Below, piece after piece: positions 29,783-58,507 of a stretch of DNA of 64,000 bases; position 1 is the stretch's first letter; every line of letters starts with the position of its first letter. The stretch is from a virus (taxonomy: Duplodnaviria > Heunggongvirae > Uroviricota > Caudoviricetes). A program made the position numbers and the translations under genes. The stretch lies in the IMG/VR virus record IMGVR_UViG_3300033463_000077, one strand, 5' to 3'. A model generated the notes under the pieces. That model was given only the letters and a program-made list of their open reading frames with translations, did not search any database and had not been told where the DNA came from.

Positions 29783-30901
29783 ATGATTTTCAGAAAATAT
29801 AGTGAAATTGAAAATTCTTACAATTCCAAATTTGTGAAGGTGCTCAGAGAGCAAGGTTTTGCTGATCCTTCCATTGAATATGTTTGTGAAAATAAAATTG
29901 ATGGAAGCAATGTTCAGGTTTCTATTGATGAACATGGACATTTCAATTTTGGTTCTCGTTCTCAGTTTTATCCAGCTCATTCTGATTTCCAGGGATCTAA
30001 GGTTTGTTTTATTAAAGAAAGAATCAAAGACAAACTGATTAGAATGAAAGAACTCATTGCAAAGGATCAGAAAGTAATTGATATTTTGAATAAACTTGCC
30101 GGGATTGATCCTGAAAAAGAAGATATTCAGAAGAAATTTATTCTTACTGTTTATGGAGAACTTTGTGGCGGAATGTATCGTCACCCGGATGTGGAAAAGG
30201 TAAAAGGTGCAATTAAAATTCAGGGCAGAGTTGATTATCACCCTGATAATAAGTTTGTTCCCTTTGATATTGTTCTTCGCTGGCCAAATGGTTCCACTAT
30301 TATGTTGTTTGATCAGGATGAAGTTGTGAAATATTGTAAAGAAGTTGATCTTCCTTATCCGATCATTTTGTTTAGAGGCACCTTTGATGAATGTCTTGAA
30401 TTTCCTGTTGAATTTGTTGATAAAACTGGTAACATTCTTTGGGGTCTTCCGATTATTGAAAACAATATCTCCGAAGGTATTGTTATCAAACCTAATAAAG
30501 CCTTATTCAAAGGAAATAAAGAAAGAGTTATTCTGAAAAAGAAAGGTGAAAGATTCAAAGAACGTATTTCTAAGAATAAAGAACCTAAAGAGGTTTTACC
30601 GATGAATGATGTGGAAAAGAAGTGGTTTGATACTATTTCTGAATTCGTCACTGAATCCCGTCTGATGAGTGTTCTCAGTAAAATAGATTGTACAAAGCTA
30701 AATGATAAATGCTTTGGTATGATTCTTGGAGCCTTCCTTAAAGATCTTTGGAATGATTTCAATAAGGAATATGAACAGGATATTGAAAAAGAACTTTCTG
30801 AAAATTCTGATTTCAATTTTGACAAAGTGAGGAAGGAAGCATCCAAATATGTTTCCAAATTCATTCAGCCTCATTTCCTTAAGCTTATTGGAAGAGCTTA
30901 A
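29783..30901 (+). CDS. RNA ligase 2 family (T4 Rnl2-like nucleotidyltransferase)
   Basis: N-terminus MIFRKYSEIENSYNSKF matches T4 Rnl2 MFKKYSSLENHYNSKF; motif I ENKIDGSN (KxDGxN). Confidence 0.8.
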   Translation: MIFRKYSEIENSYNSKFVKVLREQGFADPSIEYVCENKIDGSNVQVSIDEHGHFNFGSRSQFYPAHSDFQGSKVCFIKERIKDKLIRMKELIAKDQKVIDILNKLAGIDPEKEDIQKKFILTVYGELCGGMYRHPDVEKVKGAIKIQGRVDYHPDNKFVPFDIVLRWPNGSTIMLFDQDEVVKYCKEVDLPYPIILFRGTFDECLEFPVEFVDKTGNILWGLPIIENNISEGIVIKPNKALFKGNKERVILKKKGERFKERISKNKEPKEVLPMNDVEKKWFDTISEFVTESRLMSVLSKIDCTKLNDKCFGMILGAFLKDLWNDFNKEYEQDIEKELSENSDFNFDKVRKEASKYVSKFIQPHFLKLIGRA

Positions 30902-30902
30902 T

Positions 30903-30940
30903 GTTTACATTCTATAAAACGAATGTTATATTGTAAAAAA
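30903..30940 (+). promoter_or_regulatory. promoter motif copy (variant)
   Basis: GTTTACATTCTATAAAACGAATGTTATATTGTAAAA. Confidence 0.5.
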
Positions 30941-30959
30941 TTAAAAGAAAGGAAATATC

Positions 30960-31151
30960 ATGAAAGATCGTTGTGACCGTTGTGGAAAGCCGTTGAATGG
31001 ATGTTCTATTATGTCGATGTTCAACACCGATATAATTTGTATGGATTGCAAAATGAAGGAGAAAAATCATCCTGATTATAAGAAAGCGGTTGAAGCTGAT
31101 AATGATGCAATTAAAAATGGAAATTATAATTACAAAGGAATTTGGAGGTAA
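30960..31151 (+). CDS. zinc-ribbon small protein (63 aa)
   Basis: CDRCG...C..C; RBS AAAGGAAATATC. Confidence 0.5.
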   Translation: MKDRCDRCGKPLNGCSIMSMFNTDIICMDCKMKEKNHPDYKKAVEADNDAIKNGNYNYKGIWR

Positions 31152-31159
31152 TATAAAAA

Positions 31160-31399
31160 ATGCTTAGATTTGTAATTCTTATTGGGGTGTTCTTTTTGGC
31201 GTTTTTCTTTATTTACAGAAAAATGAAGAAATCACTTTTCTTTTGGAGTAATGAGTTATCTTCGGATGACAAATTTAACGATAGGGCAGACAAACTTAAG
31301 ATAGAAGGAGACAAGCTGCATGAAGACTTGAATGAAAAATCCAAACAACTTGAAAAAGAAGCAAAAGAAATCAAAAATTTGAAAAAGAAAGGTTTTTAA
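31160..31399 (+). CDS. membrane-anchored coiled-coil protein (79 aa)
   Basis: N-terminal TM, Lys/Glu-rich C-term. Confidence 0.5.
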   Translation: MLRFVILIGVFFLAFFFIYRKMKKSLFFWSNELSSDDKFNDRADKLKIEGDKLHEDLNEKSKQLEKEAKEIKNLKKKGF

Positions 31400-31402
31400 C
31401 AA

Positions 31403-32605
31403 ATGAGAAACAATGAAGAAGTTAATTCCGTAAAAGTTGTCGCAGTTGGCATCGCAATTCTCGTAGCACTTGTCATTGCAATTACTTTTGGTAGTGCATT
31501 TATTGGAAAGAACAACGTCCAGAACTTTCAGGTCATCCAGTCACCCACTGGAACCATTAAGATCCAGTCCGGTGGTGGTTATTATATGAAATGTTTCGAC
31601 ACTGTCTGGACTTATCCGAAGGTGAATCCTGTTTTCTTCTCCAATGAGGAAAAGGAATCCAAGGATCAGGATGGAGTACAGGTTGTATTCTCCAACAAAG
31701 GTAAGGGTGATATCTCCTCACAGGTTGTATATCGAATCTTTACTGACAACGTAAAGATGCTAAAGATGCATGAATACGCTCATGGCAATATTGATGTAAT
31801 TGACAACCTTGTTCTGTCAAAGCTGAAGGATATTGCAATGACTCACTCTTCAAACATTACCTCTTCACAGGCAATTGAAGATCGAGAACAGCTTGCCACA
31901 AATATTCGTAAGGACTTCATTAACAATAAGGAACTCGCTGAGATGGGTATTATTGTTGAACAGTTCTCCATTACGAAGATCAATTTCGATAAGCAGACAG
32001 AAGATCTATTCAAGAAACAGCAGGAAGCAGACCTTCAGAAGAAGACAGCTGAAGCTGAAAAGCTAAACCTTCAGATGCAGAAGGAAAAGACCGTTGCTGA
32101 ATATGAAAAGCAGGTTGCTGAATCAAAAGGTAAGGCAGAGGTTGAAAAGATCAAGGCTGTTACTGATGCTGAACGCCAGAAGGAACTTGCTGAAATCAAG
32201 GGAAAGCAGGAAGTTGCTGTTGCCGAACTTGAAAAGCAGAGAGCTGCAATTGAAGCAAATAAGAAACTTGAGGTCGTAGAGATTCAAAAGAAAGAGGAAA
32301 AGGCAAAGCTGGAAGTTATTCAGATTCAGTCCGAGCAAAAGGTTGCTGAAGCCAAGGCTAAGGAACAGCAGATTAAACTGTCTGGTGCAATTTCTGAAGA
32401 GCTGAAGTACCGCCTGGATGTTGAGAAGGAAACAAAGATCGGAGTAGCAAAAGCTCTTGCTGATGGCTTTGCAAAGGTTACTCTTCCGAAGACCTTCATC
32501 ATGGGAAACGGTATTGATGGTGGTAAAGGTATGAATGCCATGGAGACTTTCTTCAATCTGATGAATGTTCAGAAGGCTGAAGAAATCAACAAAACCGCAA
32601 AGTAA
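31403..32605 (+). CDS. SPFH/Band-7 (flotillin/HflK-like) domain membrane protein
   Basis: N-terminal TM, PHB-like core, long E/K/A/Q coiled-coil repeats (EVEKIKAVTDAERQKELAEIKGKQEVAVAELEKQRAAIEANK). Confidence 0.65.
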   Translation: MRNNEEVNSVKVVAVGIAILVALVIAITFGSAFIGKNNVQNFQVIQSPTGTIKIQSGGGYYMKCFDTVWTYPKVNPVFFSNEEKESKDQDGVQVVFSNKGKGDISSQVVYRIFTDNVKMLKMHEYAHGNIDVIDNLVLSKLKDIAMTHSSNITSSQAIEDREQLATNIRKDFINNKELAEMGIIVEQFSITKINFDKQTEDLFKKQQEADLQKKTAEAEKLNLQMQKEKTVAEYEKQVAESKGKAEVEKIKAVTDAERQKELAEIKGKQEVAVAELEKQRAAIEANKKLEVVEIQKKEEKAKLEVIQIQSEQKVAEAKAKEQQIKLSGAISEELKYRLDVEKETKIGVAKALADGFAKVTLPKTFIMGNGIDGGKGMNAMETFFNLMNVQKAEEINKTAK

Positions 32606-32619
32606 ACCTAACAAAATGA

Positions 32620-32652
32620 ACTAAGGTCGGATTACTCCGACCTTTTTTGTGT
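32620..32652 (+). terminator. rho-independent terminator after SPFH gene
   Basis: AAGGUCGG-AUUACU-CCGACCUU + UUUUUG. Confidence 0.6.
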
Positions 32653-32692
32653 TTACTTTTTGAAATACAGTGTTATATTAGAATATACAACA
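32652..32692 (+). promoter_or_regulatory. conserved early promoter motif copy
   Basis: motif match. Confidence 0.6.
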
Positions 32693-32708
32693 AAAGGAGA
32701 ATTGAAAA

Positions 32709-33305: not shown

Positions 33306-33309
33306 AAAA

Positions 33310-33525: not shown

Positions 33526-33540
33526 AAGGAGAAATAAATT

Positions 33541-34295: not shown

Positions 34296-34334
34296 GGAAT
34301 TTAATTATTCATTCTGATGCTAATTGAAAACATA

Positions 34335-34660
34335 TGGCCCCGTAACCGAATTGGCATAGGTACTTGACTGAGAATTCTTGGTAAAAGCAAGAATCACTGG
34401 GTCGCTAAATTGGAAACGATTTAGTAAGTAGATTCCCTAAAACGGTTAAACCTTTCAAAGAAATTTGATCGTGTAATCCCGTGCTAAATCAAAGAGTAAT
34501 CTTTGTAAATGTGTAGAGAGCAGAGAGGAATCACCTAAAAGCAGTAATGCTCATGGTTATAGTGTGCTCCAGACCACAAACTGATTATTATCAGGCATGG
34601 AAACATGTAGGGGTAAGCAAAATCAAGGTTTTACGGGTTCGACTCCCGTCGGGGCTACCA
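34335..34660 (+). tRNA. intron-containing tRNA (exons 34335-34368 and 34618-34660); spliced anticodon loop CUCAAAA (anticodon CAA, Leu-type) with Leu-like D-loop GAAUUGG but short variable loop
   Basis: manual fold: acceptor GGCCCCG/CGGGGCU, D ACC-GAAUUGGCAUA-GGU, anticodon stem CUUGA/UCAAG split by 249 nt, T ACGGG-UUCGACU-CCCGU, CCA encoded. Confidence 0.6.
34369..34617 (+). ncRNA. 249-nt group-I-like intron in tRNA anticodon loop
   Basis: insert follows U in 5' exon and ends with G; candidate IGS GGUC pairs with exon GACU (U-G at splice site); size typical of tRNA group I introns. Confidence 0.45.
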
Positions 34661-34671
34661 TTTTGATAATC

Positions 34672-34712
34672 AAACACTTTACATAGAAATGTGTAAAGTG
34701 TTTTCTTTTATA
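34672..34712 (+). terminator. rho-independent terminator after intron-tRNA
   Basis: ACACUUUACA-UAGAAAUG-UGUAAAGUGU + UUUCUUUUA. Confidence 0.55.
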
Positions 34713-35558: not shown

Positions 35559-36002
35559 TCGGAAAACAAAATCCGATGCTGATTGAAAAATTTTATGACG
35601 TAGTAGCCCAAGGAGAGGCAGCGGCTCAGACGCCGCCAAAGTATTGGTTATACTCCAATCTACGTCCCCAATTTACGTTATCCGATGGACAGATTGGTTT
35701 AAGTTGATCTTGAGAATTAGTTTAAGAGTGAAAACATCCTACTGGATTTAGGAAAATGCATGGTGCAAGGTCCGGCATTCTCAGTTGCGTCAAGATAGGC
35801 AAATGGTCAGCCTAAGACGAGATTAATTTTAATCAATTTTCCAACGTTGTTAGAAGTCTGCAATAGTTTAACTAAAACAGTCGGACGGGATCCGATGATT
35901 CAGATCAGATTGCAACGAATTCTGATTGCAGTTACTTAGGTTTTCTTGAATGACCAATCAGGAATCCAAACAACAATGGATTACATCACCTTTTTTTTTT
36001 TC
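35559..36002 (+). ncRNA. ORF-free transcription unit (~440 nt), GCUGAUUGAAAA-leader ncRNA family member
   Basis: motif promoter 35521-35558, no ORF of 60 aa or longer, hairpin + T12 terminator at 35962-36002, long-range complementarity GACGUAG/CUACGUC. Confidence 0.45.
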
Positions 36003-36012
36003 CGAAAAAGAG

Positions 36013-36050: not shown

Positions 36051-36960
36051 CGGAAAACAAAATCCGATGCTGATTGAAAATTGAAAATTTCAGGTTGGTT
36101 ATAAAAATACCGATGTGATGCAAAAGATTAGCTACTTGAGAGACTGTCAGCTCAAAACAGTGGGAGACATCCTGAGATCATATCAATGGTGGTGTTGGTT
36201 AAAGTCCAATCATTGGTTCTTGTTATATTATAATCAATCCCGGAGAACTTCATCGTAAATATCCGGCAAGGTAAACCTTGAAAATGTTGAAAACGGTATT
36301 GAAATTAGATTGGTTATTGAAAAATAATCAAATCCCGGAGAACTTCATCGTAAATATCCGGCAATTGTTCAGCGATTGAAATGTTAAAAACGGTTAAGCC
36401 TGGAAATCAAAACCGGGCGATTCAATCGCCATTAAATGTGGCGATAGCTATCAGAGAACTGGAAGGTGTTTCGGTGAGATCACTGATCCTAAGGAAATGA
36501 ATAGTGGCAGATAGAAGGTTATATTGATTGATTTACTTCTTCTGTTGGAAGCAGCAAAATCCGTTGTAAGAGCGGTGCCTAGATAATCACAGAGATGATT
36601 ATCTAATTATTTAAAATTAAAATCAATCGAGGCAGTTGAGGAAATATAGATTCTGTCTCCCGGCTCTGATTGAGTCTGAAACTAAAGACCTCATAGATGA
36701 GGGTGATGTATTCAGCCGATGAAAAATCCGGTTAGGAGTCGCTGCAGAACTCCAAAACCTCACTTCAGAAGGAAACTGAAGGATCCGACATCCGGAAAAC
36801 AAACCAAATATTAATGAGCAGTGAAAAGGACTCCAACCTTCATCTGTTGACCGTGGATTACCTGGAAGCGGTCAGTCCTCTTGGAGCTTTTATTATGAGG
36901 ATTCGATTTACGGGGATGATTAAAGCCGAATGGGATTCCATCGGCCTTTTTCATTTTATA
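36051..36960 (+). ncRNA. large ORF-free transcription unit (~900 nt), GCUGAUUGAAAA-leader family; candidate large structured (ornate) RNA
   Basis: motif promoter 36013-36050, same leader as 35559, two 34-bp direct repeats, many local hairpins, no convincing ORF (track ORF 36814..36999 has no RBS and ends inside promoter). Confidence 0.4.
36236..36373 (+). repeat. two 34-bp direct repeats (AATCCCGGAGAACTTCATCGTAAATATCCGGCAA) ~104 bp apart inside large ncRNA region
   Basis: seen directly; each can form CCGGA..UCCGG hairpin. Confidence 0.65.
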
Positions 36961-36961
36961 G

Positions 36962-36999
36962 GTTTACTTTTTGAATTCAGCTGTTATATTAAAATATAA
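36962..36999 (+). promoter_or_regulatory. conserved early promoter motif copy
   Basis: motif match. Confidence 0.6.
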
Positions 37000-37024: not shown

Positions 37025-37870
37025 ATGAAATATCTTATTCTTTCTGATTTACATATCTCTGTTGACTCTGTTACTTCTCAATTCAAACTTGAAAAATACA
37101 AAAGAATTTTAAAGAACAATTTACCTGAGAGTTATGATATCGTTCTTATTTCAGGTGATGTATTTGAACACAGAGTTCCACATTATGTAAATGTTTTTGA
37201 AACTCTGCAATACTTTTTTGATTTCAAACCGGCTGTTTTTTGTTTAGGGAATCATGAATTTGCTTATGAAGATCATGATTCTGTATTGAAAACTTACAAA
37301 GCTCAATATGAAGTTTTCAAGTCAAAATGGCCTAATGGATCGGTTTGTTGTCTTGATATTTCAGGATATTATGATTTTGATAATGCCAGAATTGTTGGAA
37401 ATGTATTTTGGTATGATTGGTCTTTAAATCATTGCAGAACTTTAATGAAAGGTGAAATTGTTGATGGTTGGTTGGATGCAACTATTGAAAATTTCGATGC
37501 AATGAAAGAACATGAAAATTGTAAAAAACAAATCATGAATTCTCTTTCTGAAGAGAAGAATCATATTCTTTTGACTCACACTGTTCCTTATGAAAAGTTG
37601 AATATGTTTAGTATTGAAGAACCAAATTCTCCATACAATTCTTATTCAGGGTGTGCGGACTTTTTGAATGAGATCAAAGATAAAAACTTTAAGTTTGCAT
37701 TTTGTGGTCATACTCATAAAAAAGCAAATTTAGAAGTATATGATATCAATTGTTTGAACATTGGAAATGATTATTATTTCAAAACATTCAGAATTGATTG
37801 GGCGCTTTTTGATATGGACAAAGATTTGAATATTTTTAATATTCTATTCAGTAAACAGTTTACTTTTTGA
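37025..37870 (+). CDS. calcineurin-like metallophosphoesterase
   Basis: MPP motifs DLH, ISGDVFEH (GDxxD), GNHE, LLTHTVPY, CGHTHKK; start MKYLIL after RBS AAAAGGAGAATTAAA. Confidence 0.7.
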   Translation: MKYLILSDLHISVDSVTSQFKLEKYKRILKNNLPESYDIVLISGDVFEHRVPHYVNVFETLQYFFDFKPAVFCLGNHEFAYEDHDSVLKTYKAQYEVFKSKWPNGSVCCLDISGYYDFDNARIVGNVFWYDWSLNHCRTLMKGEIVDGWLDATIENFDAMKEHENCKKQIMNSLSEEKNHILLTHTVPYEKLNMFSIEEPNSPYNSYSGCADFLNEIKDKNFKFAFCGHTHKKANLEVYDINCLNIGNDYYFKTFRIDWALFDMDKDLNIFNILFSKQFTF

Positions 37871-38524: not shown

Positions 38525-38607
38525 GCCAGTGTAGCTCAGCGGTAGAGCTGCCGAAAAGGCTAAACCAGAGATGGTGAAGGTCGGAGGTTCGAGCCCTCCC
38601 ACTGGCT
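38525..38607 (+). tRNA. tRNA-like gene with normal acceptor, D and T arms but a 34-nt anticodon/variable region; isotype undetermined
   Basis: acceptor GCCAGUG/CACUGGC, D GCUC-AGCGGUA-GAGC, T GGAGG-UUCGAGC-CCUCC; central region GCCGA...UCGG does not form a canonical 17-nt anticodon arm. Confidence 0.5.
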
Positions 38608-40841: not shown

Positions 40842-41795
40842 ATGAATAATGATAAACTGATCAAGATGTTCAAAGACCTTTCCCTTTATGAAGAATCTTT
40901 GAAACGGCATTTTCCTTCCAAAGCATATTTGAATGCAATTTCCACAATCAAAAAATTGCCCTTTGATATTACTGATGTTGAACAGGTCAAAGGGCTTTCT
41001 GGTTTTGGAAAGGGCCTTATTGAAAAAGTTGAATCTTTCTTGAAAACAGGGAGCTTTAAACGATATGAAGAATTCAAAAGATCAGATTTTGCCAAACTTA
41101 TTGAGATTTCAAACATTAAAGGAATTGGAGTCAATAAAGCGAAAGAGCTCGCGGCAGCTGGAATCAAAAGTCTTGAAGAGCTTAAAGAAGCGGTTAAAGA
41201 ACTTAATATTGGGGATATGATTGGAACCTCCGCAGTTAAGTATATCAACTCTATCAAAGTTGGTCTTCAGTTTGAAGCTCATACTGAAAAGACCAGAATG
41301 ACCATTCAAGAACATGATGAGATTGCTGATCCTATTATTGTAGATTTGCTCAGGAAACATGCAAATATTCTTGTTTCCTTCGCGGGCTCTAGAAGGCGGT
41401 GGAACCAGCTTGATCAGAATTACACCGTAGGCGATATCGACATCATTATAGGTGTTCCGGAAAGTGAATTGAATACCTTTTATAAGAATCTTCCCCAGTA
41501 TCTTGATGAAGTTGTTATGAATGGCCAGACCAAAGTTTCCGGAATTAAGAACAAAAGACAGATTGACTTCAGAATTGTCAACAGAGATAATTATGGTGCA
41601 CTGCTTCTCCATGCAACCGGCCCTATGAATTGGAATATCAAACTCAGAAAAATTGCGATCAGCAAAAATATGATTCTCAATGAGTATGGACTTTTTGAAA
41701 GAGATACAAGAAAACTTATTGCATCCACTGAAGAAGATATTGTATACACTTTGATCGGCACCTATATCCCAGCTGATAGAAGGGATAATTTTTGA
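40842..41795 (+). CDS. DNA polymerase family X (Pol beta-like nucleotidyltransferase)
   Basis: HhH IKGIGVNKAKEL; catalytic GSRRRWNQLDQNYTVGDIDIII (GSxRRG..GDxDxLL pattern); YGALLLHATGPMNWN; C-term EEDIVYTLIGTYIPADRRD. Confidence 0.7.
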   Translation: MNNDKLIKMFKDLSLYEESLKRHFPSKAYLNAISTIKKLPFDITDVEQVKGLSGFGKGLIEKVESFLKTGSFKRYEEFKRSDFAKLIEISNIKGIGVNKAKELAAAGIKSLEELKEAVKELNIGDMIGTSAVKYINSIKVGLQFEAHTEKTRMTIQEHDEIADPIIVDLLRKHANILVSFAGSRRRWNQLDQNYTVGDIDIIIGVPESELNTFYKNLPQYLDEVVMNGQTKVSGIKNKRQIDFRIVNRDNYGALLLHATGPMNWNIKLRKIAISKNMILNEYGLFERDTRKLIASTEEDIVYTLIGTYIPADRRDNF

Positions 41796-45293: not shown

Positions 45294-45599
45294 ATGGCTG
45301 AACAGAAACTGAAGCGAGCGGATTTTTTTGAATTTGTTGGAAAAAATTGCAAAAATGAAAAAACCTTTGAACTTACCTATACGAAGTTGAACGGGGAACT
45401 GCGTAAAGCAGTTGGTAAACTTCATGATGCAGTCGCCGATCAACTTGTCAAAGGGACAGGCTTCAATCGTCAGAAGAAGATGGATCTTTGGAAAGTTTTT
45501 CAGTATTTTGATGTCAATTCCAAAGCATATCGTTCCGCCAGGTTGGAAAATATCATTGATGTCAAAGTTGATGATGTGTTATACACCCTTGAAGATTAA
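45294..45599 (+). CDS. hypothetical protein (101 aa)
   Basis: ORF, RBS AAAGGATGAAAC. Confidence 0.5.
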   Translation: MAEQKLKRADFFEFVGKNCKNEKTFELTYTKLNGELRKAVGKLHDAVADQLVKGTGFNRQKKMDLWKVFQYFDVNSKAYRSARLENIIDVKVDDVLYTLED

Positions 45600-46124: not shown

Positions 46125-47990
46125 ATGAGCCGCATCCAAGAACTTGAAGCTGAAATCCGTCATCACAATGATCTTTATTGGAATGGAAAAGATCTTGAAA
46201 TTTCTGATATTGAATATGATGCTCTTTGTCGAGAACTTGCTGAGCTTGATCCTGACAATGAGCTTATTCTGAATTTTGGAAAGAAAGATTTGACTGGAAA
46301 CGAAAAGCTTATCAAGCACTCCAAAAAGATGTTGAGTCTTGGAAAGATTTATTCCAAAGAAGACCTGCTTAAATGGGTTAAAAAAGTTTCCAGAACCAAT
46401 CAAGAAGAATTTCTTATTCAGCCGAAATATGATGGAATGTCCGGACTTTTGGAAAATGGGACTCTTAGTTCACGTGGTGATGGTGAATATGGTCAGGATT
46501 ATACTGATAAACTGAAGTTGATTGAATTTGATACTGATAAGAAGATTGATCCAAGTCGTGATAGTCTACTTGGAGAGATTATAATCAAAAACAGTTATTT
46601 CAAAAGCATCTTTGGTGAAGTGAAGTCAAAATCTGGTATTCCGTTTAAGAATCAACGAAACGGAATTGCCGGTATTCTTGGAACCGATGATGTGGACTTC
46701 TATTACAATCAGGGTGCGAAAATTACTTTTGTTGATTACGACAAAGAATCCACTACTACAAATTGCTTCCACTTTTCTGAAGCATGGGATGCTGTTGTAG
46801 ATCACATTCTTAAGAATACTGATTATCCTCTTGATGGTATCGTGATTAAGCTCAAAGATCAAGCATATGCCGAATCTCTTGGATATACTACTCATCATCC
46901 TCGTGGAGCTGTAGCATTCAAATTTACAAATCAGACTGCTGTATCAAAACTTATTGATGTTGAGTGGGGAATGGGAAAACAGCAGATTTCAGCTGTTGGT
47001 GTTATTGAGCCTGTTGAAATTTCTGGAACTACTATTCGAAGAGTTAAGCTTCAGCTTACAAAGCCAAAGAGTTCCGCTGTTGAAACTTGTCTGATTGATG
47101 GAAGCCTTCAGATAGGTGATACGGTGGTAGTTGAACGCGCTGGAGATATTATTCCTCATATCATTTCCTCCAAACCAGGTGTGAATAGAAAGAGAGTTTA
47201 TATTGATAAATGTCCTTTCTGTGGATCTGATACTTTCATTAATGAAACAAGTGTTCAGTGTGGAGCCTTAAATGGAAGATGCATTGAAACTGAAGTTCAG
47301 GAGCTTTATTGCTCCATCGTTACTCTTGGATTTAAGAATGTTGGTGAAGCCTATATCAGACTTATTGTTAATGATCCTAATCTTAAAGTTCGTTACATTG
47401 CCGATCTCTTTGATCTGAAGCCTGAAGATATGAAGCTGAAAGAATATGGAACTCGTAAGAAAGAAATTTTCTTTGAAGAGATTGAAAAAGCAAAAAAGAA
47501 TGCAACAAAAGATATGGTTCTCGCTTCAATGAATATTCCTACTGTTGGAAAAACTGTATCAAAAATTATTGTAGAGAACTTCAACTGGGAAGATGTTATT
47601 GAAGGAAGATTTGATTCTCACGATTATGAAAAAGTCGATGGAATTGGACATATAATTGCCGATTCACTTGAAACATACTTAGGTCCTGGATCTTGGGCCA
47701 CTGACAATCTTCGTAGAATGTCCGCAATATTTTCATTCAAGAAAGTTGAAAAGAAATCTGAAAATTCAAATGGAATGACAATTTGTTTCACAGGAAAAAT
47801 GGAAAATAAAAGATCAGTTATGGAACAGATTGCAAAAGATCGTGGATTCACTCCTATGGATCATGTTGATAAGAATCTTTCCATTTTGGTTTGTGCAGAT
47901 CCTAACAGTGGTTCCGGAAAACTTCAGAAGGCTGCTAAGTACGGAACAAGAATCATTTCTGAAAAAGATTTCATGGATGGAAAATATTAA
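46125..47990 (+). CDS. ligA: NAD-dependent DNA ligase
   Basis: N-terminal Ia domain ELEAEIRHHNDLYWNGKDLEISDIEYDALCRELAELD, adenylation motif I QPKYDGMSG, Zn-finger CPFCGS...C, C-terminal BRCT; start MSRIQELE after RBS AAAGGAGACAAATAT. Confidence 0.85.
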   Translation: MSRIQELEAEIRHHNDLYWNGKDLEISDIEYDALCRELAELDPDNELILNFGKKDLTGNEKLIKHSKKMLSLGKIYSKEDLLKWVKKVSRTNQEEFLIQPKYDGMSGLLENGTLSSRGDGEYGQDYTDKLKLIEFDTDKKIDPSRDSLLGEIIIKNSYFKSIFGEVKSKSGIPFKNQRNGIAGILGTDDVDFYYNQGAKITFVDYDKESTTTNCFHFSEAWDAVVDHILKNTDYPLDGIVIKLKDQAYAESLGYTTHHPRGAVAFKFTNQTAVSKLIDVEWGMGKQQISAVGVIEPVEISGTTIRRVKLQLTKPKSSAVETCLIDGSLQIGDTVVVERAGDIIPHIISSKPGVNRKRVYIDKCPFCGSDTFINETSVQCGALNGRCIETEVQELYCSIVTLGFKNVGEAYIRLIVNDPNLKVRYIADLFDLKPEDMKLKEYGTRKKEIFFEEIEKAKKNATKDMVLASMNIPTVGKTVSKIIVENFNWEDVIEGRFDSHDYEKVDGIGHIIADSLETYLGPGSWATDNLRRMSAIFSFKKVEKKSENSNGMTICFTGKMENKRSVMEQIAKDRGFTPMDHVDKNLSILVCADPNSGSGKLQKAAKYGTRIISEKDFMDGKY

Positions 47991-49073: not shown

Positions 49074-49640
49074 ATGAACATTATATTTTTAGACATGGAT
49101 GGAGTAATAAACTCCGGTGAAATACAAAAAGAATGGGTAAAAAAGAATGGATTCTCTAAAGAATCTAGGGATGCATTTATCAAAAAATATTGTTTGAATA
49201 CAAAATTTCCATTTTATTATATTGTTCCAGAACTTCTAAATAGATTTAATGAAATGTATTCAAAAATTCCAAATTGTAGAGTTGTTTGGTCTTCTTCCTG
49301 GAGATTAACAGCTAAAAAAGAATCAAAATTATTTGTTGAAGGCCTATACTATAAATGCGGTTTTCCTAATGGAAGTTTTATTGGTTATACTTCACATATG
49401 CCACATCTTTTAAGATATAATGAAATAGAAGATTGGATTAAAACATTTAAAGATGTTTATCAAATTGATAAATGTGCAATCATTGATGATCTTTATGAAG
49501 CATCATTAGGAGTTGATGAATTTCTCGGAATACCAATAAAATTTTTTCAGACATCTGGACATCATGGCTTAACGGAAGAAATAGCAAATAATATTGTAAA
49601 GTATTTTGAGGAGATAAATGAAAAAGATGAAAATAAATGA
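49074..49640 (+). CDS. HAD-superfamily phosphatase (5'(3')-nucleotidase / polynucleotide 3'-phosphatase-like)
   Basis: HAD motif I IIFLDMDGVIN at N-terminus; later CAIIDD acidic motif. Confidence 0.6.
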   Translation: MNIIFLDMDGVINSGEIQKEWVKKNGFSKESRDAFIKKYCLNTKFPFYYIVPELLNRFNEMYSKIPNCRVVWSSSWRLTAKKESKLFVEGLYYKCGFPNGSFIGYTSHMPHLLRYNEIEDWIKTFKDVYQIDKCAIIDDLYEASLGVDEFLGIPIKFFQTSGHHGLTEEIANNIVKYFEEINEKDENK

Positions 49641-51755: not shown

Positions 51756-52124
51756 ATGTCGCAACCTGGTTTGAATAGACTGAAGTATGAACTTATTCCG
51801 AGAATGAAAAGGAAATGTCTTCAGGATCGTGGAATGACTTATCGAATTGCAGCAGTTGCTTTTACTAAAAAAGGCAACTTTATTGATATTCGATACAATA
51901 ATCATCGTATGTACATGTCCCATAGAAAAGGAGCTGGGCTTCATGCTGAACAAGATTTGATTCATCTTTATGGGAATAAAATTGATACGATTTATATTTT
52001 GAGAGTTGGAGGAACTGGAAATTATCTTCCTATCCATCCATGCAAAACCTGTGCCGAAATTGCAAGAAAAAGAGGAATAAAAATTATTCCCCTTCATGAG
52101 GAAATTGATTTGATAAAGGAATAA
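51756..52124 (+). CDS. CMP/dCMP-type deaminase zinc-binding family protein (cytidine/deoxycytidylate or tRNA-adenosine deaminase-like)
   Basis: HAEQDLI (H[AC]E) and PCKTCAEI (PCxxC) zinc-ligand motifs with correct spacing. Confidence 0.6.
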   Translation: MSQPGLNRLKYELIPRMKRKCLQDRGMTYRIAAVAFTKKGNFIDIRYNNHRMYMSHRKGAGLHAEQDLIHLYGNKIDTIYILRVGGTGNYLPIHPCKTCAEIARKRGIKIIPLHEEIDLIKE

Positions 52125-52128
52125 AATT

Positions 52129-52362
52129 ATGGATTTACCAATAATTTATTGGATTGTTCTTGGAAGTTATCTTATTGGAGCTTTGATCTTTTTAGCAATC
52201 ATTGAAAGAAAATTTAACAAAGATGGAAACAAAGATACTTTTATTAGAAAACAACAAGCTGATTCTGGTATGATTATTTGTTCCATACTTTGGCTTCCAC
52301 TTATTCTTATTATTTTTTCATACATATTTACCAAAAGAATTTTTGGAGGAAATGAAAAATGA
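52129..52362 (+). CDS. small membrane protein (77 aa)
   Basis: two TM segments. Confidence 0.45.
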   Translation: MDLPIIYWIVLGSYLIGALIFLAIIERKFNKDGNKDTFIRKQQADSGMIICSILWLPLILIIFSYIFTKRIFGGNEK

Positions 52363-52607
52363 ATCTTATGTGTCAGAAATGTGGAAATCATGTTAAAGAA
52401 ACTATGACTACCATCAGTGTAAAATCTGAACTTGGTTTTACAATTCCTGCAACTGTTTATGAATGTGAACATTGCCATGAAGAACATATTCTTTGTCCTG
52501 AATGTGAAGGAGAAGGATGGGTGAACATTATTGATCCTCATGATTGTCCTCTTTGTAGTGGTATGGGAGTTATTTCTCTTAAACAAATTATGAAAGTGAT
52601 GAATTAA
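52359..52607 (+). CDS. Cys-rich zinc-finger protein (82 aa)
   Basis: CQKCG..., CEHCHEEHILCPEC, CPLCSG pairs. Confidence 0.5.
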   Translation: MNLMCQKCGNHVKETMTTISVKSELGFTIPATVYECEHCHEEHILCPECEGEGWVNIIDPHDCPLCSGMGVISLKQIMKVMN

Positions 52608-52608
52608 A

Positions 52609-53016
52609 ATGAATTTGATTTTAATCATTGGAGTTCCTGGCTCAGGAAAAACCACATTAGCAAAAAAGCTTCAGAAAGAAAGACTTGAAGATTATAAAAT
52701 TTTTGAAGCTGATATGTTCTTTGAAAGAAACGGAAAATATGATTGGAATCCTAAACTTTTGGGAGCCGCTCATAAATGGTGTTATAATCAAGTTGAAAAT
52801 GCTTTGAAAAATGGGGAGTCAGTAATTGTTTCCAATACATCTTTAATTCCTCGTGACAGAAAACCTTATATTGAACTTGCAAAGAAATATGGAGCAAATA
52901 TTGAAGTATTCACTTGTGAAGGAAATTATCAAAATGTTCACAATGTGCCTAATGAAACAATCGAAAGAATGAAGCAAAAATTTGTCCCTTACTCAAAAAA
53001 TGAGGAAAATTTTTGA
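52609..53016 (+). CDS. P-loop polynucleotide 5'-kinase-like protein (T4 Pnk kinase-domain-like)
   Basis: Walker A IIGVPGSGKTT resembles T4 Pnk ILTIGCPGSGKST; GESVIVSNTSLIPRDRKPYIELAKKYGANIEVF resembles Pnk VKGVIISDTNLNPERR..FAKEYGWKVEHKVF. Confidence 0.6.
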   Translation: MNLILIIGVPGSGKTTLAKKLQKERLEDYKIFEADMFFERNGKYDWNPKLLGAAHKWCYNQVENALKNGESVIVSNTSLIPRDRKPYIELAKKYGANIEVFTCEGNYQNVHNVPNETIERMKQKFVPYSKNEENF

Positions 53017-53450: not shown

Positions 53451-54258
53451 AGCGAACCAGAAGAGAACTAGATATAGTAGAAGGAGGATCGTAAAAAATC
53501 TTCCTTCTTTTGTTGTAAAAATAAGTAGTAAAGATATGAGTAAAAATAATTCAATGTTTGATGACATAAACAAAGAACCTTCATTTCTAACAAAATGCTG
53601 GTGGAAGATTAGTAATTTTTTTGATAACTGGATTTATCCTGCACATTTTCTAAAAAACTTTTTATTTCATAATTACAATAAGGTAAAACTTCCAATGTTC
53701 AAACCTTATGAATACCTTGATATTTCAGTAAGGATGGAATTTGCAGTTTTTGAATTGATTAAAGAATTCATAGAAAAGGAACAACCTGAAAAATACATTT
53801 GTTGGTATAAAGATGAAAAAGGAGAAGACCTTGGTCATAAATATGGAGACTATGAAGGCTCAAAAATTCTTTTTCAATCTTTAAAAGGCAAATATGTTAT
53901 GGATATCATTAAAGACATTTATAATTTCTACACAAAGGTTTTGCCTGAAATGGAAAAAGAAAAAGACTATCTTTTGAGTGTGTGGAGCAAATACATTTTT
54001 AATGGACATTATGTTCCTGATAAAGATAATAAAGATTTAGTTGAATGGGTTACTGATAAAACCAATTATACTTTAAAAGACTTGGAAAAAGAAAATTTGA
54101 ATTGGGATATTATTTTGAAATATATTGAAAAGAAAGAAAATTTCTTTAATGATCATCTCCTCCATTCAAAAATTCATGAACAGGAAAAATTGATCAACAA
54201 TCAGATTAAATACTATCTTCATTTAGCCATTGAAGTTCGTGAATATCTTTGGACTTGA
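53422..54258 (+). CDS. hypothetical protein (278 aa; alternative start MSKNNS at ~53536)
   Basis: long ORF; start ambiguous (overlaps upstream gene by 29 nt or begins at internal ATG). Confidence 0.5.
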   Translation: MVKILSRSPEANQKRTRYSRRRIVKNLPSFVVKISSKDMSKNNSMFDDINKEPSFLTKCWWKISNFFDNWIYPAHFLKNFLFHNYNKVKLPMFKPYEYLDISVRMEFAVFELIKEFIEKEQPEKYICWYKDEKGEDLGHKYGDYEGSKILFQSLKGKYVMDIIKDIYNFYTKVLPEMEKEKDYLLSVWSKYIFNGHYVPDKDNKDLVEWVTDKTNYTLKDLEKENLNWDIILKYIEKKENFFNDHLLHSKIHEQEKLINNQIKYYLHLAIEVREYLWT

Positions 54259-54987: not shown

Positions 54988-54989
54988 AA

Positions 54990-55030: not shown

Positions 55031-55052
55031 ACATTGAAGGAGAAAATAAATT

Positions 55053-55382: not shown

Positions 55383-55399
55383 AATTATAAATATACAAG

Positions 55400-55730
55400 A
55401 AGAGAAATCTTCGTGCTGATTGAAAACTGTTTATTGGTTATTTTGTAATTGAAATTGTTATCCTATAACAGATACCAATTTTAGATGTTCTCAATTTTCC
55501 ATACTTTGCAAATACCGGAAGATGAGCCTTAAAGCAAAGGTTTCCTAAAGTTGGGTAAAAGGTTTCCCTCGGTTTTGAAAATCGGGTAAAGCTAGCAAAT
55601 TTTGAAATATTTGTTATAGATGAGCACCTCTTAATCGCGGAGAACAAATTAGGAGTTTTTATTTTGTCCTATTATCCTCACTGATGAACAGTTTTCCGGT
55701 CCCAGTTGATTGCAACACTGGGACTTTTTT
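55400..55730 (+). ncRNA. ORF-free transcription unit (~320 nt), GCUGAUUGAAAA-leader family
   Basis: leader motif at 55414-55425; no ORF; terminator GGUCCCAGU..ACUGGGAC + U6 at 55698-55730. Confidence 0.4.
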
Positions 55731-55739
55731 AGTAAAAAG

Positions 55740-55780
55740 GGTTTACTTCATATAAAAGAATGTTACATTATAATATTCAG
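55740..55780 (+). promoter_or_regulatory. promoter motif copy (variant)
   Basis: GGTTTACTTCATATAAAAGAATGTTACATTATAATAT. Confidence 0.45.
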
Positions 55781-55808
55781 TTTAATCTTTAATTAGAAAA
55801 AGGAAAAC

Positions 55809-56345
55809 ATGCAGATTTATTTCAAAAGCAAAGATGGATTTGTTGATGAGCCTTTTAGCTTCAGCAAATACGGAAACAAAAAATTTCAAGTTGTTGGAGA
55901 TCATTACAACACTGGAACAAATCGCTTTGGATATGAAGCGGTAAAGCAGGCGAATGAAGAGAGCGGATTGGATGTTCTGCTTTTAAATGATAAATCTGAA
56001 GTATTCATAATTAAATTTCTTGACATTCAGAAGTTCCTTTATGAACAGAAAAAGGCAAGGAAGGAACAGGAAAAGAAACAGAAAGCTTCTCAGCAAAAAC
56101 TGAAAGAAATTAAATTTCATATGAATATTGCTGAGAATGATTTGAAGACCAAAGTTGAACATGTCAAAAAGTTTCTTGAAGAAAATTGCAAAGTTAAAGT
56201 TGTTCTTGAACTTCGTGGAAGAGAAGTTGGAATGAAAGATTATGCAAAAGAAGTTTGGGAAAATATAATTTCAAATTTTGCTGAATATCAAATCAGTGAA
56301 AAGAAAGAAATGGGAAATTCATATTTTGTGTTTATCACGAAGTAA
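55809..56345 (+). CDS. translation initiation factor IF-3 homologue (full length, 178 aa)
   Basis: C-domain KEIKFHMNIAENDLKTKVEHVKKFLEENCKVKVVLELRGREVGMKDYAKEV aligns with bacterial IF3 [51 protein letters not shown]; N-domain LDVLLLNDKSEVFIIKFLDIQKFLYEQKK resembles [29 protein letters not shown]. Confidence 0.65.
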   Translation: MQIYFKSKDGFVDEPFSFSKYGNKKFQVVGDHYNTGTNRFGYEAVKQANEESGLDVLLLNDKSEVFIIKFLDIQKFLYEQKKARKEQEKKQKASQQKLKEIKFHMNIAENDLKTKVEHVKKFLEENCKVKVVLELRGREVGMKDYAKEVWENIISNFAEYQISEKKEMGNSYFVFITK

Positions 56346-56460
56346 AAAGAATTATTTTAATAATAAATTTTTGGTAACTCAATGCATTACCTAAGTTCGG
56401 ATTGGAATAAGCCGATTGCCTGAAATGGTTGTAATGTATTAGGCATAAACTGAGTTATAT

Positions 56461-56538
56461 ACTCCGGTAGCTCAGTTGGTTATGAGCAAATGCCTTATAA
56501 GCATTGGGTCGGTGGTTCAAATCCACCCCGGAGTACCA
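56461..56538 (+). tRNA. tRNA-Ile (anticodon TAT)
   Basis: manual cloverleaf: acceptor ACUCCGG/CCGGAGU, anticodon stem AAUGC/GCAUU, loop CUUAUAA, T GGUGG-UUCAAAU-CCACC, CCA encoded. Confidence 0.75.
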
Positions 56539-56544
56539 GGATTT

Positions 56545-56582
56545 TTCAAAGGTGATTGTAGGAATACTTTCACCTTTTTTAT
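56545..56582 (+). terminator. rho-independent terminator after tRNA-Ile
   Basis: AAAGGUGA..UCACCUUU + UUUUAUUUAC. Confidence 0.55.
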
Positions 56583-56619
56583 TTACTTTTCAAATTTTTC
56601 TGTTATATTAGAAATATAC
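56582..56619 (+). promoter_or_regulatory. conserved early promoter motif copy
   Basis: motif match. Confidence 0.55.
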
Positions 56620-56636
56620 GGAAAGGAAATCTAGAT

Positions 56637-56870
56637 ATGGACATTAAAGAATTCATTAAGAAATATAATCTTTCAGAAGAAGCTGAGGCTGATCTGAATT
56701 CAATTCTTGAAAAATGGGGAAATGATAATTTTGAATTTTTGAAAATTTTGATAAAAGATTTTGAATTCAGATCAAAATTAACTAAACCTCAAAAATTTGT
56801 TAATTGTAATGGTTGGCTTTTTGAAATGCCTGACGATATTGAAGCTTTTGAAAAATTAAAAGGAGAATAA
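56637..56870 (+). CDS. hypothetical protein (77 aa)
   Basis: ORF, RBS AAAGGAAATCTAGAT. Confidence 0.5.
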   Translation: MDIKEFIKKYNLSEEAEADLNSILEKWGNDNFEFLKILIKDFEFRSKLTKPQKFVNCNGWLFEMPDDIEAFEKLKGE

Positions 56871-56873
56871 ATC

Positions 56874-58106
56874 ATGTTTAGAAACTTTGTTAAAGAATAT
56901 TTGAATGAACCTGGAAAAAACCTTGATACTCTAAAAGAAGAGTTTGGTATTTCTTATCGTATTTTCAATGCAAAGAATGGAGATCTTGTCATTCTTTCTT
57001 ATTCTCAGATTGATTCTCCAAAAACCAATCCGATCGTTAGGATGTGTCGTGGATTGGTTCTTGAGATGAATACTTGGGACATTGTTTCCTATCCTTTTTA
57101 TCGTTTTTACAATTTTGAAGAAGTTCCAGAAGAACGTCTGAAATTCAATTGGAAGAAAGCAATGGCTACTGAAAAAATTGATGGTTCATTGCTGGAAGTC
57201 TTTAATTACAAAGGTGAATGGCTTATTTCCACCCGTTCAATGATCGGTGGAGAAAATGCAGTTAATGCTTTGGGTACTACGGTTAATGATATTTTTGATA
57301 TGGCAATTTCTCCAATGACTCGTAAGGAATTCTTTGAAAGACTTATTCCAAATATTTCTTATATTTTTGAAATTGTCAGTCCTTTCAATCAAATCGTTAC
57401 TCAGTGGGATGCCGCTCATCTTTATTTGATTGGTGGAAGAAGCAAAACTTTTAATGAAGAAGAATATACTTTTATCGATCTTTATGATTTGTTTGATTCT
57501 GCAATGAAAAACATTGTTAGAATTCCTAAAGTCATTTCTCTTTATGATAAAGAATCTGATGACTTTGTTGGATTTGAAAAAATGAAGATGCTTGCGGAAA
57601 CTGGAAATTCTCAGGATGAAGGTTTTGTTGTGGTGGATTTTGACAGTCTTGATAAAACTACCAATTCCTTTCCGAGAGTGAAAGTTAAAAATTCTGCTTA
57701 TGTTGCTCTTCATCATTTGAGAGGTTCTTTGGAGAATGGAGCTCCGCAATATGAAAGAATTCTTACTTTGATTTACAATAAAGAAGATGCAGAAGTTCTT
57801 TCTAATCTTCCTCATATGAAGCCTTACTTTGATGAAGTCAAAGAAAAGTTTAATAAATTCCTTGAAGAGTTTAATTCTGATTTGAAATTGATTGAAGCTG
57901 AATTGAATGATCCTCAGAAATTTATTGATCATCCTGAATTGAAGAAAGATTTTGCAATGAAGATCAAAGATTCAAAATATAAGAATTTGTTTTTCTTCAT
58001 GCTGAAGTCTTGTACCAAAACTTTCAATGAAATGGTTGATTATCAGATCAGCAAGTCAGTTGATGTTTTTGATAAACTTTGGGACTCTTATATTTCCAAG
58101 ATGTAA
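56874..58106 (+). CDS. RNA ligase 1 family (T4 Rnl1/RnlA-like)
   Basis: SYRIFNAKNGDLVILSYSQ..RMCRGLVLE..YRFYNFEE..EKIDGSL aligns with T4 Rnl1 TYRIFSYNYASYSDW..ECRGIMFE..MEKFFNLNE..TKEDGSL (motif I KxDGSL). Confidence 0.75.
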   Translation: MFRNFVKEYLNEPGKNLDTLKEEFGISYRIFNAKNGDLVILSYSQIDSPKTNPIVRMCRGLVLEMNTWDIVSYPFYRFYNFEEVPEERLKFNWKKAMATEKIDGSLLEVFNYKGEWLISTRSMIGGENAVNALGTTVNDIFDMAISPMTRKEFFERLIPNISYIFEIVSPFNQIVTQWDAAHLYLIGGRSKTFNEEEYTFIDLYDLFDSAMKNIVRIPKVISLYDKESDDFVGFEKMKMLAETGNSQDEGFVVVDFDSLDKTTNSFPRVKVKNSAYVALHHLRGSLENGAPQYERILTLIYNKEDAEVLSNLPHMKPYFDEVKEKFNKFLEEFNSDLKLIEAELNDPQKFIDHPELKKDFAMKIKDSKYKNLFFFMLKSCTKTFNEMVDYQISKSVDVFDKLWDSYISKM

Positions 58107-58145
58107 GTTTACATTTATTCAAAAAGTGTTATATTAAAATATACT
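58107..58145 (+). promoter_or_regulatory. promoter motif copy (variant) driving ncRNA + tRNA-Lys
   Basis: GTTTACATTTATTCAAAAAGTGTTATATTAAAATAT. Confidence 0.5.
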
Positions 58146-58430
58146 GATGGAAGATCGGTAGCTGATTGAAAATTTAATTGTTGTAAAAAGCTACAGTCAC
58201 ATGCGTGAAGGCCAGAAGCAAGGGCGAGATTGGAACACCGTAAAGCATGGATGATTGAGAAGAGACAGTGGACAGTTGCAAGTCAAGACCTCATTACAAC
58301 TAAGTACGGTCATGAGGAAAATCCACCGTGGTAGGCAACTAGTGGGTGGTAATGTGGAGGTAAGATTCCAAAGTCTTATGTCCAACGGAAGACGTCGAAA
58401 TCTTAGTTGACAACAATTAATTTTTTAGAT
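58146..58430 (+). ncRNA. ORF-free leader/ncRNA (~280 nt) with GCUGAUUGAAAA motif, co-transcribed with tRNA-Lys
   Basis: variant promoter 58107-58145; no ORF; runs directly into tRNA-Lys. Confidence 0.4.
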
Positions 58431-58507
58431 GGGGCCATAACTCAGTTGGCTAGAGTAGCATCCTTTTAAGATGCGAGTCGGCGGTTCGAATCCGCCTGGC
58501 CCCACCA
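58431..58507 (+). tRNA. tRNA-Lys (anticodon TTT)
   Basis: manual cloverleaf: acceptor GGGGCCA/UGGCCCC, anticodon stem GCAUC/GAUGC, loop CUUUUAA, T GGCGG-UUCGAAU-CCGCC, CCA encoded. Confidence 0.8.

Follow-up and report, generated by a model that had tools for sequence, protein, structure and literature searches.

Does the stretch of phage DNA analyzed here encode one pathway for healing and sealing broken RNA, or a set of enzymes with unrelated functions? The stretch, a 64-kb window of the Caudoviricetes record IMGVR_UViG_3300033463_000077 with 36% G+C, carries genes for two RNA ligases, a stand-alone kinase, and a HAD phosphatase, together with tRNA genes and several other enzymes of nucleic acid metabolism. 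T4 Pnk and Rnl1 repair host tRNA-Lys cleaved by PrrC, and a first-pass annotation of the window proposed a dispersed toolkit of this kind that would counter host anticodon nucleases. We lean, with moderate confidence, toward a split T4-type heal-and-seal pathway that works with the phage tRNAs to sustain translation when host nucleases cut tRNA. That the four RNA enzymes belong to their families and keep their catalytic motifs intact is observed directly, as is their recurrent genomic association elsewhere. Of the eight enzyme assignments first made, seven are supported by profile searches of Pfam, PHROGs, and NCBIfam, at the positions first given.

Both RNA ligases carry intact catalytic motifs. 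The Rnl2 gene encodes the adenylyltransferase domain (Pfam RNA_ligase, 6.9e-17) as well as the nick-sealing C-terminal domain (T4_Rnl2_C, 9.8e-13), and it matches phrog_548 (4.5e-57). Its alignment with T4 Rnl2 (2HVQ, 2.7e-16; residues 4-76 and 148-371) covers both domains and sets its motif I, ENKIDGSN, opposite EKIHGTN of the T4 enzyme. The match to TIGR02307 (1.3e-36, 126.8 bits) lies under the equivalog cut-off of 197. The Rnl1 gene matches RNA_lig_T4_1 (3.2e-17). Because this protein is too diverged for a direct match to PDB sequences (a phmmer search gave none), T4 Rnl1 was reached with a family profile built from 20 homologues, which matches 2C5U at 4.7e-30. Residues K101, D103, G104, E166, E249, G250, K270, and K272, which fall in motifs I, III, IV, and V, are invariant in these 20 homologues and align with KEDG, EGYV, and KIK of T4 Rnl1. 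A helical C-terminal domain confers tRNA specificity on the T4 enzyme; the profile alignment extends to T4 residue 346 of 375, and the C-terminal region is alignable. A scan of IMG/VR with Rnl1 peptide patterns found nothing.

The healing steps would fall to two separate proteins. On its sequence matches, the kinase belongs to the Pnk/PSTK/Kti12 clade. It is recognized by Pfam AAA_33 (5.7e-16) and also by KTI12, has a P-loop (GVPGSGKTT) and an Asp at position 35 (D35), and matches PSTK (3.5e-8), T4 Pnk (1.2e-5), and Clostridium thermocellum Pnk (7e-5) in the PDB and phrog_2071 and phrog_505 (polynucleotide kinase, 2.6e-15) among PHROGs. Each of the 102 homologues that were found is a stand-alone protein of similar size. 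The phosphatase is a clear member of HAD_SAK_2 (1.4e-16; 61.5 bits against a cut-off of 27.5; model positions 1-137 of 139), a family named for 'Swiss Army Knife' RNA-repair proteins. It keeps both the DMDGV of motif I and the later acidic IIDD motif, and a direct phmmer search of PDB sequences with it gave no match. Neither protein has the fusion found in T4 Pnk, where a kinase and a Pnk-type HAD form one polypeptide. The first-pass annotation had described split kinase and phosphatase modules, and this description fits an unfused kinase and a HAD that is encoded by a separate gene and belongs to a different Pfam family.

The likeness to T4 has limits. Both phages have an Rnl1 with all nucleotidyl-transfer motifs and an Rnl2 that includes the T4 C-terminal domain; both also have a P-loop kinase in which the Pnk-type Asp is present and a HAD protein with a DxDx(T/V) motif. 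In contrast to T4, the kinase and phosphatase here are separate proteins encoded 3 kb apart, the phosphatase is of the HAD_SAK_2 type and not the Pnk HAD, and Rnl1 is so diverged that its T4 counterpart is found by family profile only. The phage also carries its own tRNA-Lys(UUU). If the expected chemistry is that of T4, ends with a 5'-OH and a 2',3'-cyclic phosphate would be converted to 5'-phosphate and 3'-OH and then sealed. The 135-amino-acid kinase would phosphorylate 5'-OH RNA ends, the HAD_SAK_2 phosphatase would strip 2',3'-cyclic or 3' phosphates, Rnl1 would reseal breaks in the tRNA anticodon loop, and Rnl2 would seal nicks in duplex RNA. The phage tRNAs (Lys-UUU, Arg-UCU, Ile-UAU, Asn, Pro, and others) may supplement or replace those of the host.

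Genomic context in unrelated phages suggests that these enzymes work together. In the 595-kb uncultured phage LR756511, an Rnl1 homologue (8856-9962) comes immediately after a kinase homologue with 37% identity (8090-8587). Within 5.3 kb on one strand, the T5-like Vibrio phage VspSw_1 (Demerecviridae) encodes an Rnl1 that is annotated as such (gp096) together with homologues of the HAD (gp103) and of the kinase (gp105). The last of these is the closest homologue of the kinase in a cultured phage (46% identity), and gp103 is 37% identical to the HAD phosphatase over its N-terminal 76 residues; the HAD and kinase genes adjoin, 3 kb from Rnl1. This gp096-gp105 cluster resembles the window in its set of enzymes and differs from it in being more compact and in having no tRNA within the 10 kb examined. 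The HAD homologue of Vibrio phage 193E37-1 has no informative neighbors that we could see. A third line of context comes from a metagenome relative whose Rnl1 is 70% identical, in which rnl1 is followed by a gene for the nucleotidyltransferase RlaP (PF10127), whose family takes its name from a link to RNA ligases. From LR756511, VspSw_1, and RlaP taken together, the core RNA enzymes probably form a functional group.

The link between rnl1 and tRNA-Lys can be followed across metagenome contigs that carry Rnl1 homologues (labeled L0xx; percentages in parentheses give Rnl1 identity). In the window, tRNA-Lys(UUU) starts 325 nucleotides past the rnl1 stop codon. It had first been placed one unit downstream of rnl1, which is correct; the unit in between is a 255-nucleotide noncoding RNA. 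The same tRNA follows rnl1 in the identical contigs L001 and L002, in L020 (91%), where tRNA-Gly comes next, and in L010 and L011 (92%). In these last two contigs, it is split between U34 and U35 by a 221-nucleotide insert that ends in G and matches the Rfam group I intron model with 39.9 bits (E = 6.6e-9), under the gathering score of 50. The split tRNA is closely followed by a free-standing DUF559/MTES_1575 endonuclease gene (L010, 2982-3776). In L014 (66%), tRNA-Lys(UUU) is 2 kb downstream of rnl1 and tRNA-Ile(UAU) is kept upstream. The larger gene order LigA-HAD-deaminase-kinase-IF3-Rnl1 is kept in the relative at 87%.

Seven canonical tRNAs are found in the whole window by ARAGORN and Rfam: Ala, Pro, and Asn on the minus-strand arm and Arg(UCU), Ile(UAU), Lys(UUU), and Ser(CGA) on the plus-strand arm. 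Besides these, there are one tRNA with an insert and two tRNA-like genes. An initial count of nine tRNA or tRNA-like genes is about right for the window as a whole, with just five of them inside 29783-58507. The interrupted tRNA has good acceptor, D, and T arms and a 248-nucleotide insert that follows U33 and ends in G; the insert has no Rfam group I match. Its anticodon after splicing would read CAA, yet its variable arm is short. A tmRNA assignment for this locus was rejected, having as its sole support a 17-nucleotide T-arm match; ARAGORN reports no tmRNA there, and the locus has a D arm of the tRNA type. An ATGCTGA/TCAGCAT inverted repeat brackets the downstream of the two tRNA-like genes, and both of these genes could serve as decoys or partner RNAs. 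On the minus-strand arm, another DUF559/MTES_1575 endonuclease gene (19616-20647) stands next to tRNA-Pro and tRNA-Asn (20764-20933). Pairing of such an endonuclease with tRNA-Asn/Pro also occurs in L003, pointing to mobile endonucleases with tRNA loci as their targets.

The window is divided into a minus-strand arm (1-28122) and a plus-strand arm (28278-64000), both closely packed with short open reading frames (ORFs). A promoter-like motif, GTTATATTAAAATATA, occurs at 82 sites in the whole window against 0.18 expected, usually with GTTTAC 16-17 nucleotides before it, and its orientation is that of the genes on both arms. Almost all genes or small gene groups have a copy to themselves. Because the motif falls inside the longer versions of the metallophosphoesterase and LigA genes, starts at 37025 and 46125 are preferred over the longest-ORF starts, which bears out the start codons chosen originally. 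A near-identity DNA search with LigA against 50,697 phage records gave no match, and the lineage is absent from that collection at the DNA level. The exact Rnl1 protein was found on JGI and ENA metagenome contigs, and the names of contig records (STEW19, XIEF21, LIJU20, and Ga0265301) suggest ruminant gut samples, which is a reading of labels only. Since Rnl1 homologues of 35-50% identity lie on contigs of 335-555 kb, the window is probably an accessory, early/middle-type region of a large uncultured phage of ruminant gut origin, related to the 'huge' phages. Among the other plus-arm genes are those for a 400-amino-acid SPFH/Band 7 protein (31403-32605) and a small WYL_2 (Sm-like SH3) protein (45294-45599). 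An IF3 homologue (55809-56345; IF3_C 2.7e-19; TIGR00168 91 bits against a cut-off of 60) stands beside tRNA-Ile(UAU) and is kept in relatives.

Table 1. Coordinates of the features discussed; positions refer to the window unless a related contig is named
Feature	Coordinates	Strand	Basis
Rnl2-family RNA ligase, nick-sealing type	29783-30901 (start 29777/29783)	+	Pfam, PHROGs, PDB, NCBIfam
Rnl1-family RNA ligase, tRNA-repair type, motif I EKIDGSL	56874-58106	+	Pfam, phrog_562, family profile
P-loop kinase, Pnk/PSTK/Kti12 clade, candidate 5'-OH polynucleotide kinase	52609-53016	+	Pfam, PHROGs, PDB, neighborhoods
HAD_SAK_2 phosphatase, candidate 3'-end-healing enzyme	49074-49640	+	Pfam, neighborhood in VspSw_1
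tRNA-Arg(UCU), own phage promoter, about 270 nucleotides upstream of rnl2	29438-29514	+	ARAGORN; Rfam 70.7 bits
tRNA-Ile(UAU), 336 nucleotides upstream of rnl1	56461-56538	+	ARAGORN, Rfam
tRNA-Lys(UUU), CUUUUAA loop, encoded CCA, then terminator hairpin	58431-58507	+	ARAGORN, Rfam
Intron-split tRNA-Lys(UUU) in relatives	L010 2552-2849; L011 4853-5150		Rfam group I-like, 39.9 bits
Interrupted tRNA, anticodon read as CAA, A73, encoded CCA	34336-34660	+	ARAGORN with introns allowed
tRNA-like element, 8-nucleotide 'anticodon' loop, at 5' end of a roughly 430-nucleotide noncoding unit	35597-35670	+	ARAGORN
tRNA-like gene, canonical acceptor/D/T arms, enlarged irregular anticodon region	38525-38607	+	Rfam tRNA 45.1 bits, fold
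Stand-alone calcineurin-type metallophosphoesterase	37025-37870	+	Pfam, AF2 model, Foldseek
Pol-beta-like family X DNA polymerase (8-kDa domain, fingers, palm, thumb), without PHP	40842-41795	+	Pfam, 3AU2, NF006375
NAD-dependent DNA ligase LigA, full length, motif KYDG	46125-47990	+	Pfam, phrog_3869, TIGR00575
Small putative CDA-fold deaminase, transcription unit shared with kinase	51756-52124	+	motifs, sub-cut-off Pfam
Cys-type dual-specificity phosphatase, further candidate end-processing enzyme	5467-6063	-	Pfam PTP-NADK 27.9 bits, PTP-SAK weak
Leader-tagged noncoding units	34319-34700, 35578-36010, 36069-36965, 55415-55810, 58161-58430, 59299-59820	plus arm	
Conserved structured 255-nucleotide noncoding RNA, behind phage promoter and leader	58173-58427	+	alignments, fold
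Copies of the 255-nucleotide RNA in relatives	L005 11398-11660; L010 2295-2551; L020 1271-1535 (-)		

The remaining enzymes of the proposed toolkit are a mixed group. The metallophosphoesterase assignment stands as to family (Metallophos, 2e-17; TIGR03729, 65 bits, under the cut-off) and is unsupported as to membership in an end-healing set. Its AF2 model has a pLDDT of 93.9, and its nearest Foldseek neighbors are PptH, GpdQ, Rv0805, Mre11, and Dbr1, with TM scores of about 0.5-0.6. The sequence profile gives weak matches to Mre11, SbcD, and LpxH only, and neither profile nor Foldseek searches found any specific likeness to CthPnkp or lambda phosphatase. Direct phmmer against PDB sequences gave no match, so that a family profile was required. 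Homologues of this protein stand alone and are never fused to a kinase or ligase, and the gene is 15 kb from that of the kinase. In Clostridium thermocellum Pnkp/Hen1, by comparison, a lambda-phosphatase-like metallophosphoesterase is fused to a kinase and a ligase; the kinase modules are related and the concept of kinase, phosphoesterase, and ligase is shared, whereas the phosphoesterase here is unfused, distant, and structurally nearest to PptH, GpdQ, and Rv0805, and there is no Hen1. It is a generic member of its superfamily.

LigA has all of its Pfam domains (Ia, adenylation, OB, HhH, and BRCT) and matches phrog_3869 (4e-103), as expected from its original assignment; its TIGR00575 score of 289.6 bits is under the equivalog cut-off of 444. 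The LigA of large phages is regarded as a replication enzyme (PMC7824862), and this one is probably the replicative ligase. The polymerase was also correctly named as Pol X, having Pfam HHH_8, fingers, and thumb domains and an end-to-end alignment of residues 1-315 with the polymerase half of Thermus PolX (3AU2, 2e-27). All three catalytic Asp residues are kept (GDIDII opposite GDLDFL, and IDFRIV opposite VDLRVV), and a Lys occupies the place of what we take to be the dRP-lyase Lys72 of Pol beta. PolX is matched in just 11 of the 50,697 phage records; the match is full-length in five, all of them unannotated records from Staphylococcus and Listeria, of which several are shorter than 6 kb. A full-length Pol-beta-like PolX without a PHP domain is rare among sequenced phages. 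It lies 4.3 kb from LigA and each gene has a separate promoter; the two may form a gap-repair pair, as first suggested. The deaminase assignment has in its favor HAE and PCKTC zinc motifs, which fall where helices 2 and 3 are predicted to start, but it is under the threshold in Pfam (dCMP_cyt_deam_1, 19.4 bits against a cut-off of 25). A single-sequence AlphaFold model of low confidence (pLDDT 54) gives weak fold matches, mostly to small cytidine deaminases, and phmmer against PDB sequences gave none. A deaminase homologue is found 2.5 kb from rnl1 in L007. Homologues of the dual-specificity phosphatase occur upstream of rnl1 at 1.6 kb in L012 and 5.7 kb in L014.

Six ORF-free transcription units on the plus-strand arm have a common layout, in which a phage promoter is followed by a short hairpin, the leader GCTGATTGAAAA, and a noncoding stretch of 255 to about 890 nucleotides. 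Stop codons of all three kinds occur in nearly every frame, which rules out recoded genes and marks the units as noncoding. The noncoding stretches are unlike one another, a terminator hairpin ends several of the units, and none matches an Rfam family, including ROOL, GOLLD, YrlA, and group I. In relatives, the unit u55415 is 78-95% conserved, u59299 is 87-90% conserved, and u36069 is 74% conserved over 590 nucleotides in L012 and L013. The short tRNA units lack the leader. The leader may be like an rrn-type boxA antitermination signal placed after a boxB-like hairpin; a literature search on this reading found nothing. Within the roughly 890-nucleotide unit, a hairpin-forming segment, TCCCGGAGAACTTCATCGTAAATATCCGGCAA, is duplicated about 100 nucleotides apart (36233-36268 and 36333-36365).

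The unit between rnl1 and tRNA-Lys consists of a promoter (58108-58143), the short hairpin, the 12-mer leader, and the 255-nucleotide RNA, which ends in an 11-bp terminal helix that closes the fold. Its copies in L005, L010/L011, and L020 are 87-95% identical. Compensatory double changes occur in 8 of its 73 predicted pairs, counted over three distinct sequences only, and its folding z-score is -2.35. It is kept in L005 despite the missing tRNA-Lys. A scan of IMG/VR with a 20-mer from this RNA found nothing, and a metagenome scan gave 10 loci with a single true homologue among them (L020). These noncoding units are a more unusual content of the region than the toolkit is.

Several observations weigh against a single pathway aimed at cut host tRNA. 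All genes of the proposed toolkit are at the positions first given for them, close to tRNA genes; they are nevertheless dispersed among roughly 55 other ORFs across 29 kb and are divided over a number of transcription units rather than forming a single operon. The word 'toolkit' applies loosely here, to a mix of RNA repair with replication (LigA), DNA repair (PolX), and other enzymes. The generic metallophosphoesterase weakens the wider set, PolX appears from its sequence to be a separate DNA-repair gene, and neither it nor the putative deaminase has a shown tie to the RNA enzymes. In the reading that we favor, LigA (replication), PolX (DNA gap filling), the metallophosphoesterase, and the deaminase have unrelated roles and share the region by chance. 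No dedicated 2',3'-cyclic phosphodiesterase (2H), RtcB, RlaP, or CCA-adding enzyme was found among about 40 other window ORFs by Pfam, PHROGs, and motif searches. The best structural relative of the kinase is PSTK, a tRNA-Ser(Sec) kinase, with Pnk at just 1e-5. No tRNA-Lys stands beside rnl1 in L005 (87%), L012/L013 (94%), L003/L004 (70%), or L007 (50%). The linkage, kept in some relatives and lost in others, is therefore recurrent within the clade and dispensable, and a gene order that was simply inherited would account for it. The anticodon loop of tRNA-Lys is canonical, with no sign of nuclease evasion. Lys makes up 10.8% of residues and AAA is the commonest codon (7.5% of codons), so plain codon supply also accounts for tRNA-Lys(UUU); likewise, AGA is the commonest Arg codon (53%). 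What the enzymes act on, in which order they act, and whether they counter host defence are inferred by analogy only, and the contigs come from metagenomes only. Some of this evidence also bears on an account that we find less likely, namely that there is no single toolkit. The HAD protein, deaminase, and kinase would then be a nucleotide-pool block (a dNMP phosphatase, a dCMP or cytidine deaminase, and a nucleotide kinase), LigA and PolX would serve replication and repair, the tRNAs would supply A/T-rich codons, and the RNA ligases would be independent accessories. Its nucleotide-metabolism component is a serious rival. In Rhizobium phage RL38J1, the HAD homologue directly precedes thymidylate synthase and dihydrofolate reductase genes, which implies that the HAD, deaminase, and kinase may be a nucleotide-metabolism set, and a tight cluster in the window (51756-53016), made up of the deaminase, two small ORFs, and the kinase, is ended by a terminator (53479-53508). 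T4 Rnl1 also acts in tail-fibre attachment, and the PHROG label of the Rnl1 family (phrog_562) is 'RNA ligase and tail fiber protein attachment catalyst'. Moreover, the context of rnl1 is mosaic even among relatives of 92-94% identity. However, the profile matches of the kinase are to polynucleotide and tRNA kinases, with a thymidylate-kinase match that spans the P-loop only, and the HAD protein is well above the cut-off of an RNA-repair family. The kinase adjoins Rnl1 in LR756511, and both the HAD and the kinase are near Rnl1 in VspSw_1. Codon supply also leaves two of the tRNAs unexplained, since the codons they read are scarcely used: TCG, read by tRNA-Ser(CGA) (60521-60610), has 4 uses in 6,924 plus-arm codons (1% of Ser codons), and ATA, read by tRNA-Ile(UAU), makes up 9% of Ile codons.

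The heal-and-seal enzymes might instead, or in addition, mature, repair, or circularize the phage's own RNAs, namely the interrupted tRNA, the tRNA-like genes, and the six leader-tagged RNAs. We judge this improbable. The 255-nucleotide RNA directly follows rnl1 in all relatives with an Rnl1 identity of at least 87%, except the L012/L013 lineage, and it could be a partner RNA like the Y RNAs of the rsr-yrlA-rtcB operon. Units like u36069 occur near rnl1 in L012/L013 and L014, the window itself holds one interrupted tRNA and two tRNA-like genes, and a group I intron is present in the tRNA-Lys beside rnl1 in L010/L011. Nonetheless, the association with the 255-nucleotide RNA is confined to one narrow clade and may consequently be plain synteny, the distant Rnl1 homologues in L003, L007, and L009 lack this RNA, and one metagenome scan gave only one further copy. 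Group I introns, for their part, self-splice and require no ligase. The arrangement of an RNA ligase gene, a structured noncoding RNA, and tRNA or tRNA-like genes is shared with the rsr-YrlA-rtcB operon, but the window has no Ro/TROVE protein and no RtcB, and the RNA does not match YrlA, so the likeness is a resemblance only. A bolder version, which we hold to be a long shot, would join rnl1, the 255-nucleotide RNA, and tRNA-Lys into an RNA-protein repair module, with the RNA as cofactor, scaffold, or decoy and the heal-and-seal enzymes broadly servicing the leader-tagged and tRNA-like RNAs of the phage. If true, these enzymes would serve phage-encoded structured RNAs and not host tRNA alone.

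The T4-type pathway that we favor has close published parallels. Jumbo phages combine tRNAs with Rnl1/Rnl2, polynucleotide kinases, HAD phosphatases that are either PNK-fused or of the stand-alone 'Swiss-army-knife' kind, occasional calcineurin-like enzymes, and RlaP, and these tRNA and repair sets have been read as counters to anticodon-loop cleavage (Iyer et al. 2021, PMC7824862). Coliphages that encode tRNA-Lys(UUU) have been noted to carry rnl1 and rnl2 as well (van den Berg et al. 2023, PMC10264068). Both papers take such a combination as a counter to anticodon nucleases. Earlier work has thus reported a repair set with phage tRNAs in jumbo phages and the joint presence of tRNA-Lys(UUU) with rnl1 and rnl2. 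The window shares with jumbo phages the Rnl1/Rnl2 ligases, a candidate polynucleotide kinase, SAK HAD, calcineurin-like enzyme, many tRNAs, IF3, and NAD-dependent ligase, and differs in the added Pol-beta-like PolX and leader-tagged noncoding RNAs, neither of which was found by a term search of PMC7824862.

The value of these results is in annotation and in the choice of enzymes for assay, and the current picture of phage RNA repair is unchanged by them. What is unusual lies beyond the toolkit, in the six noncoding RNA units, the interrupted tRNA and tRNA-like genes, the group I intron in the tRNA-Lys of relatives, and PolX. Neighborhoods in other phages add independent evidence that a small stand-alone AAA_33 kinase works with Rnl1, and a lineage probably from the ruminant gut joins the phages that unite tRNAs of their own with a split kinase, phosphatase, and ligase repair set.

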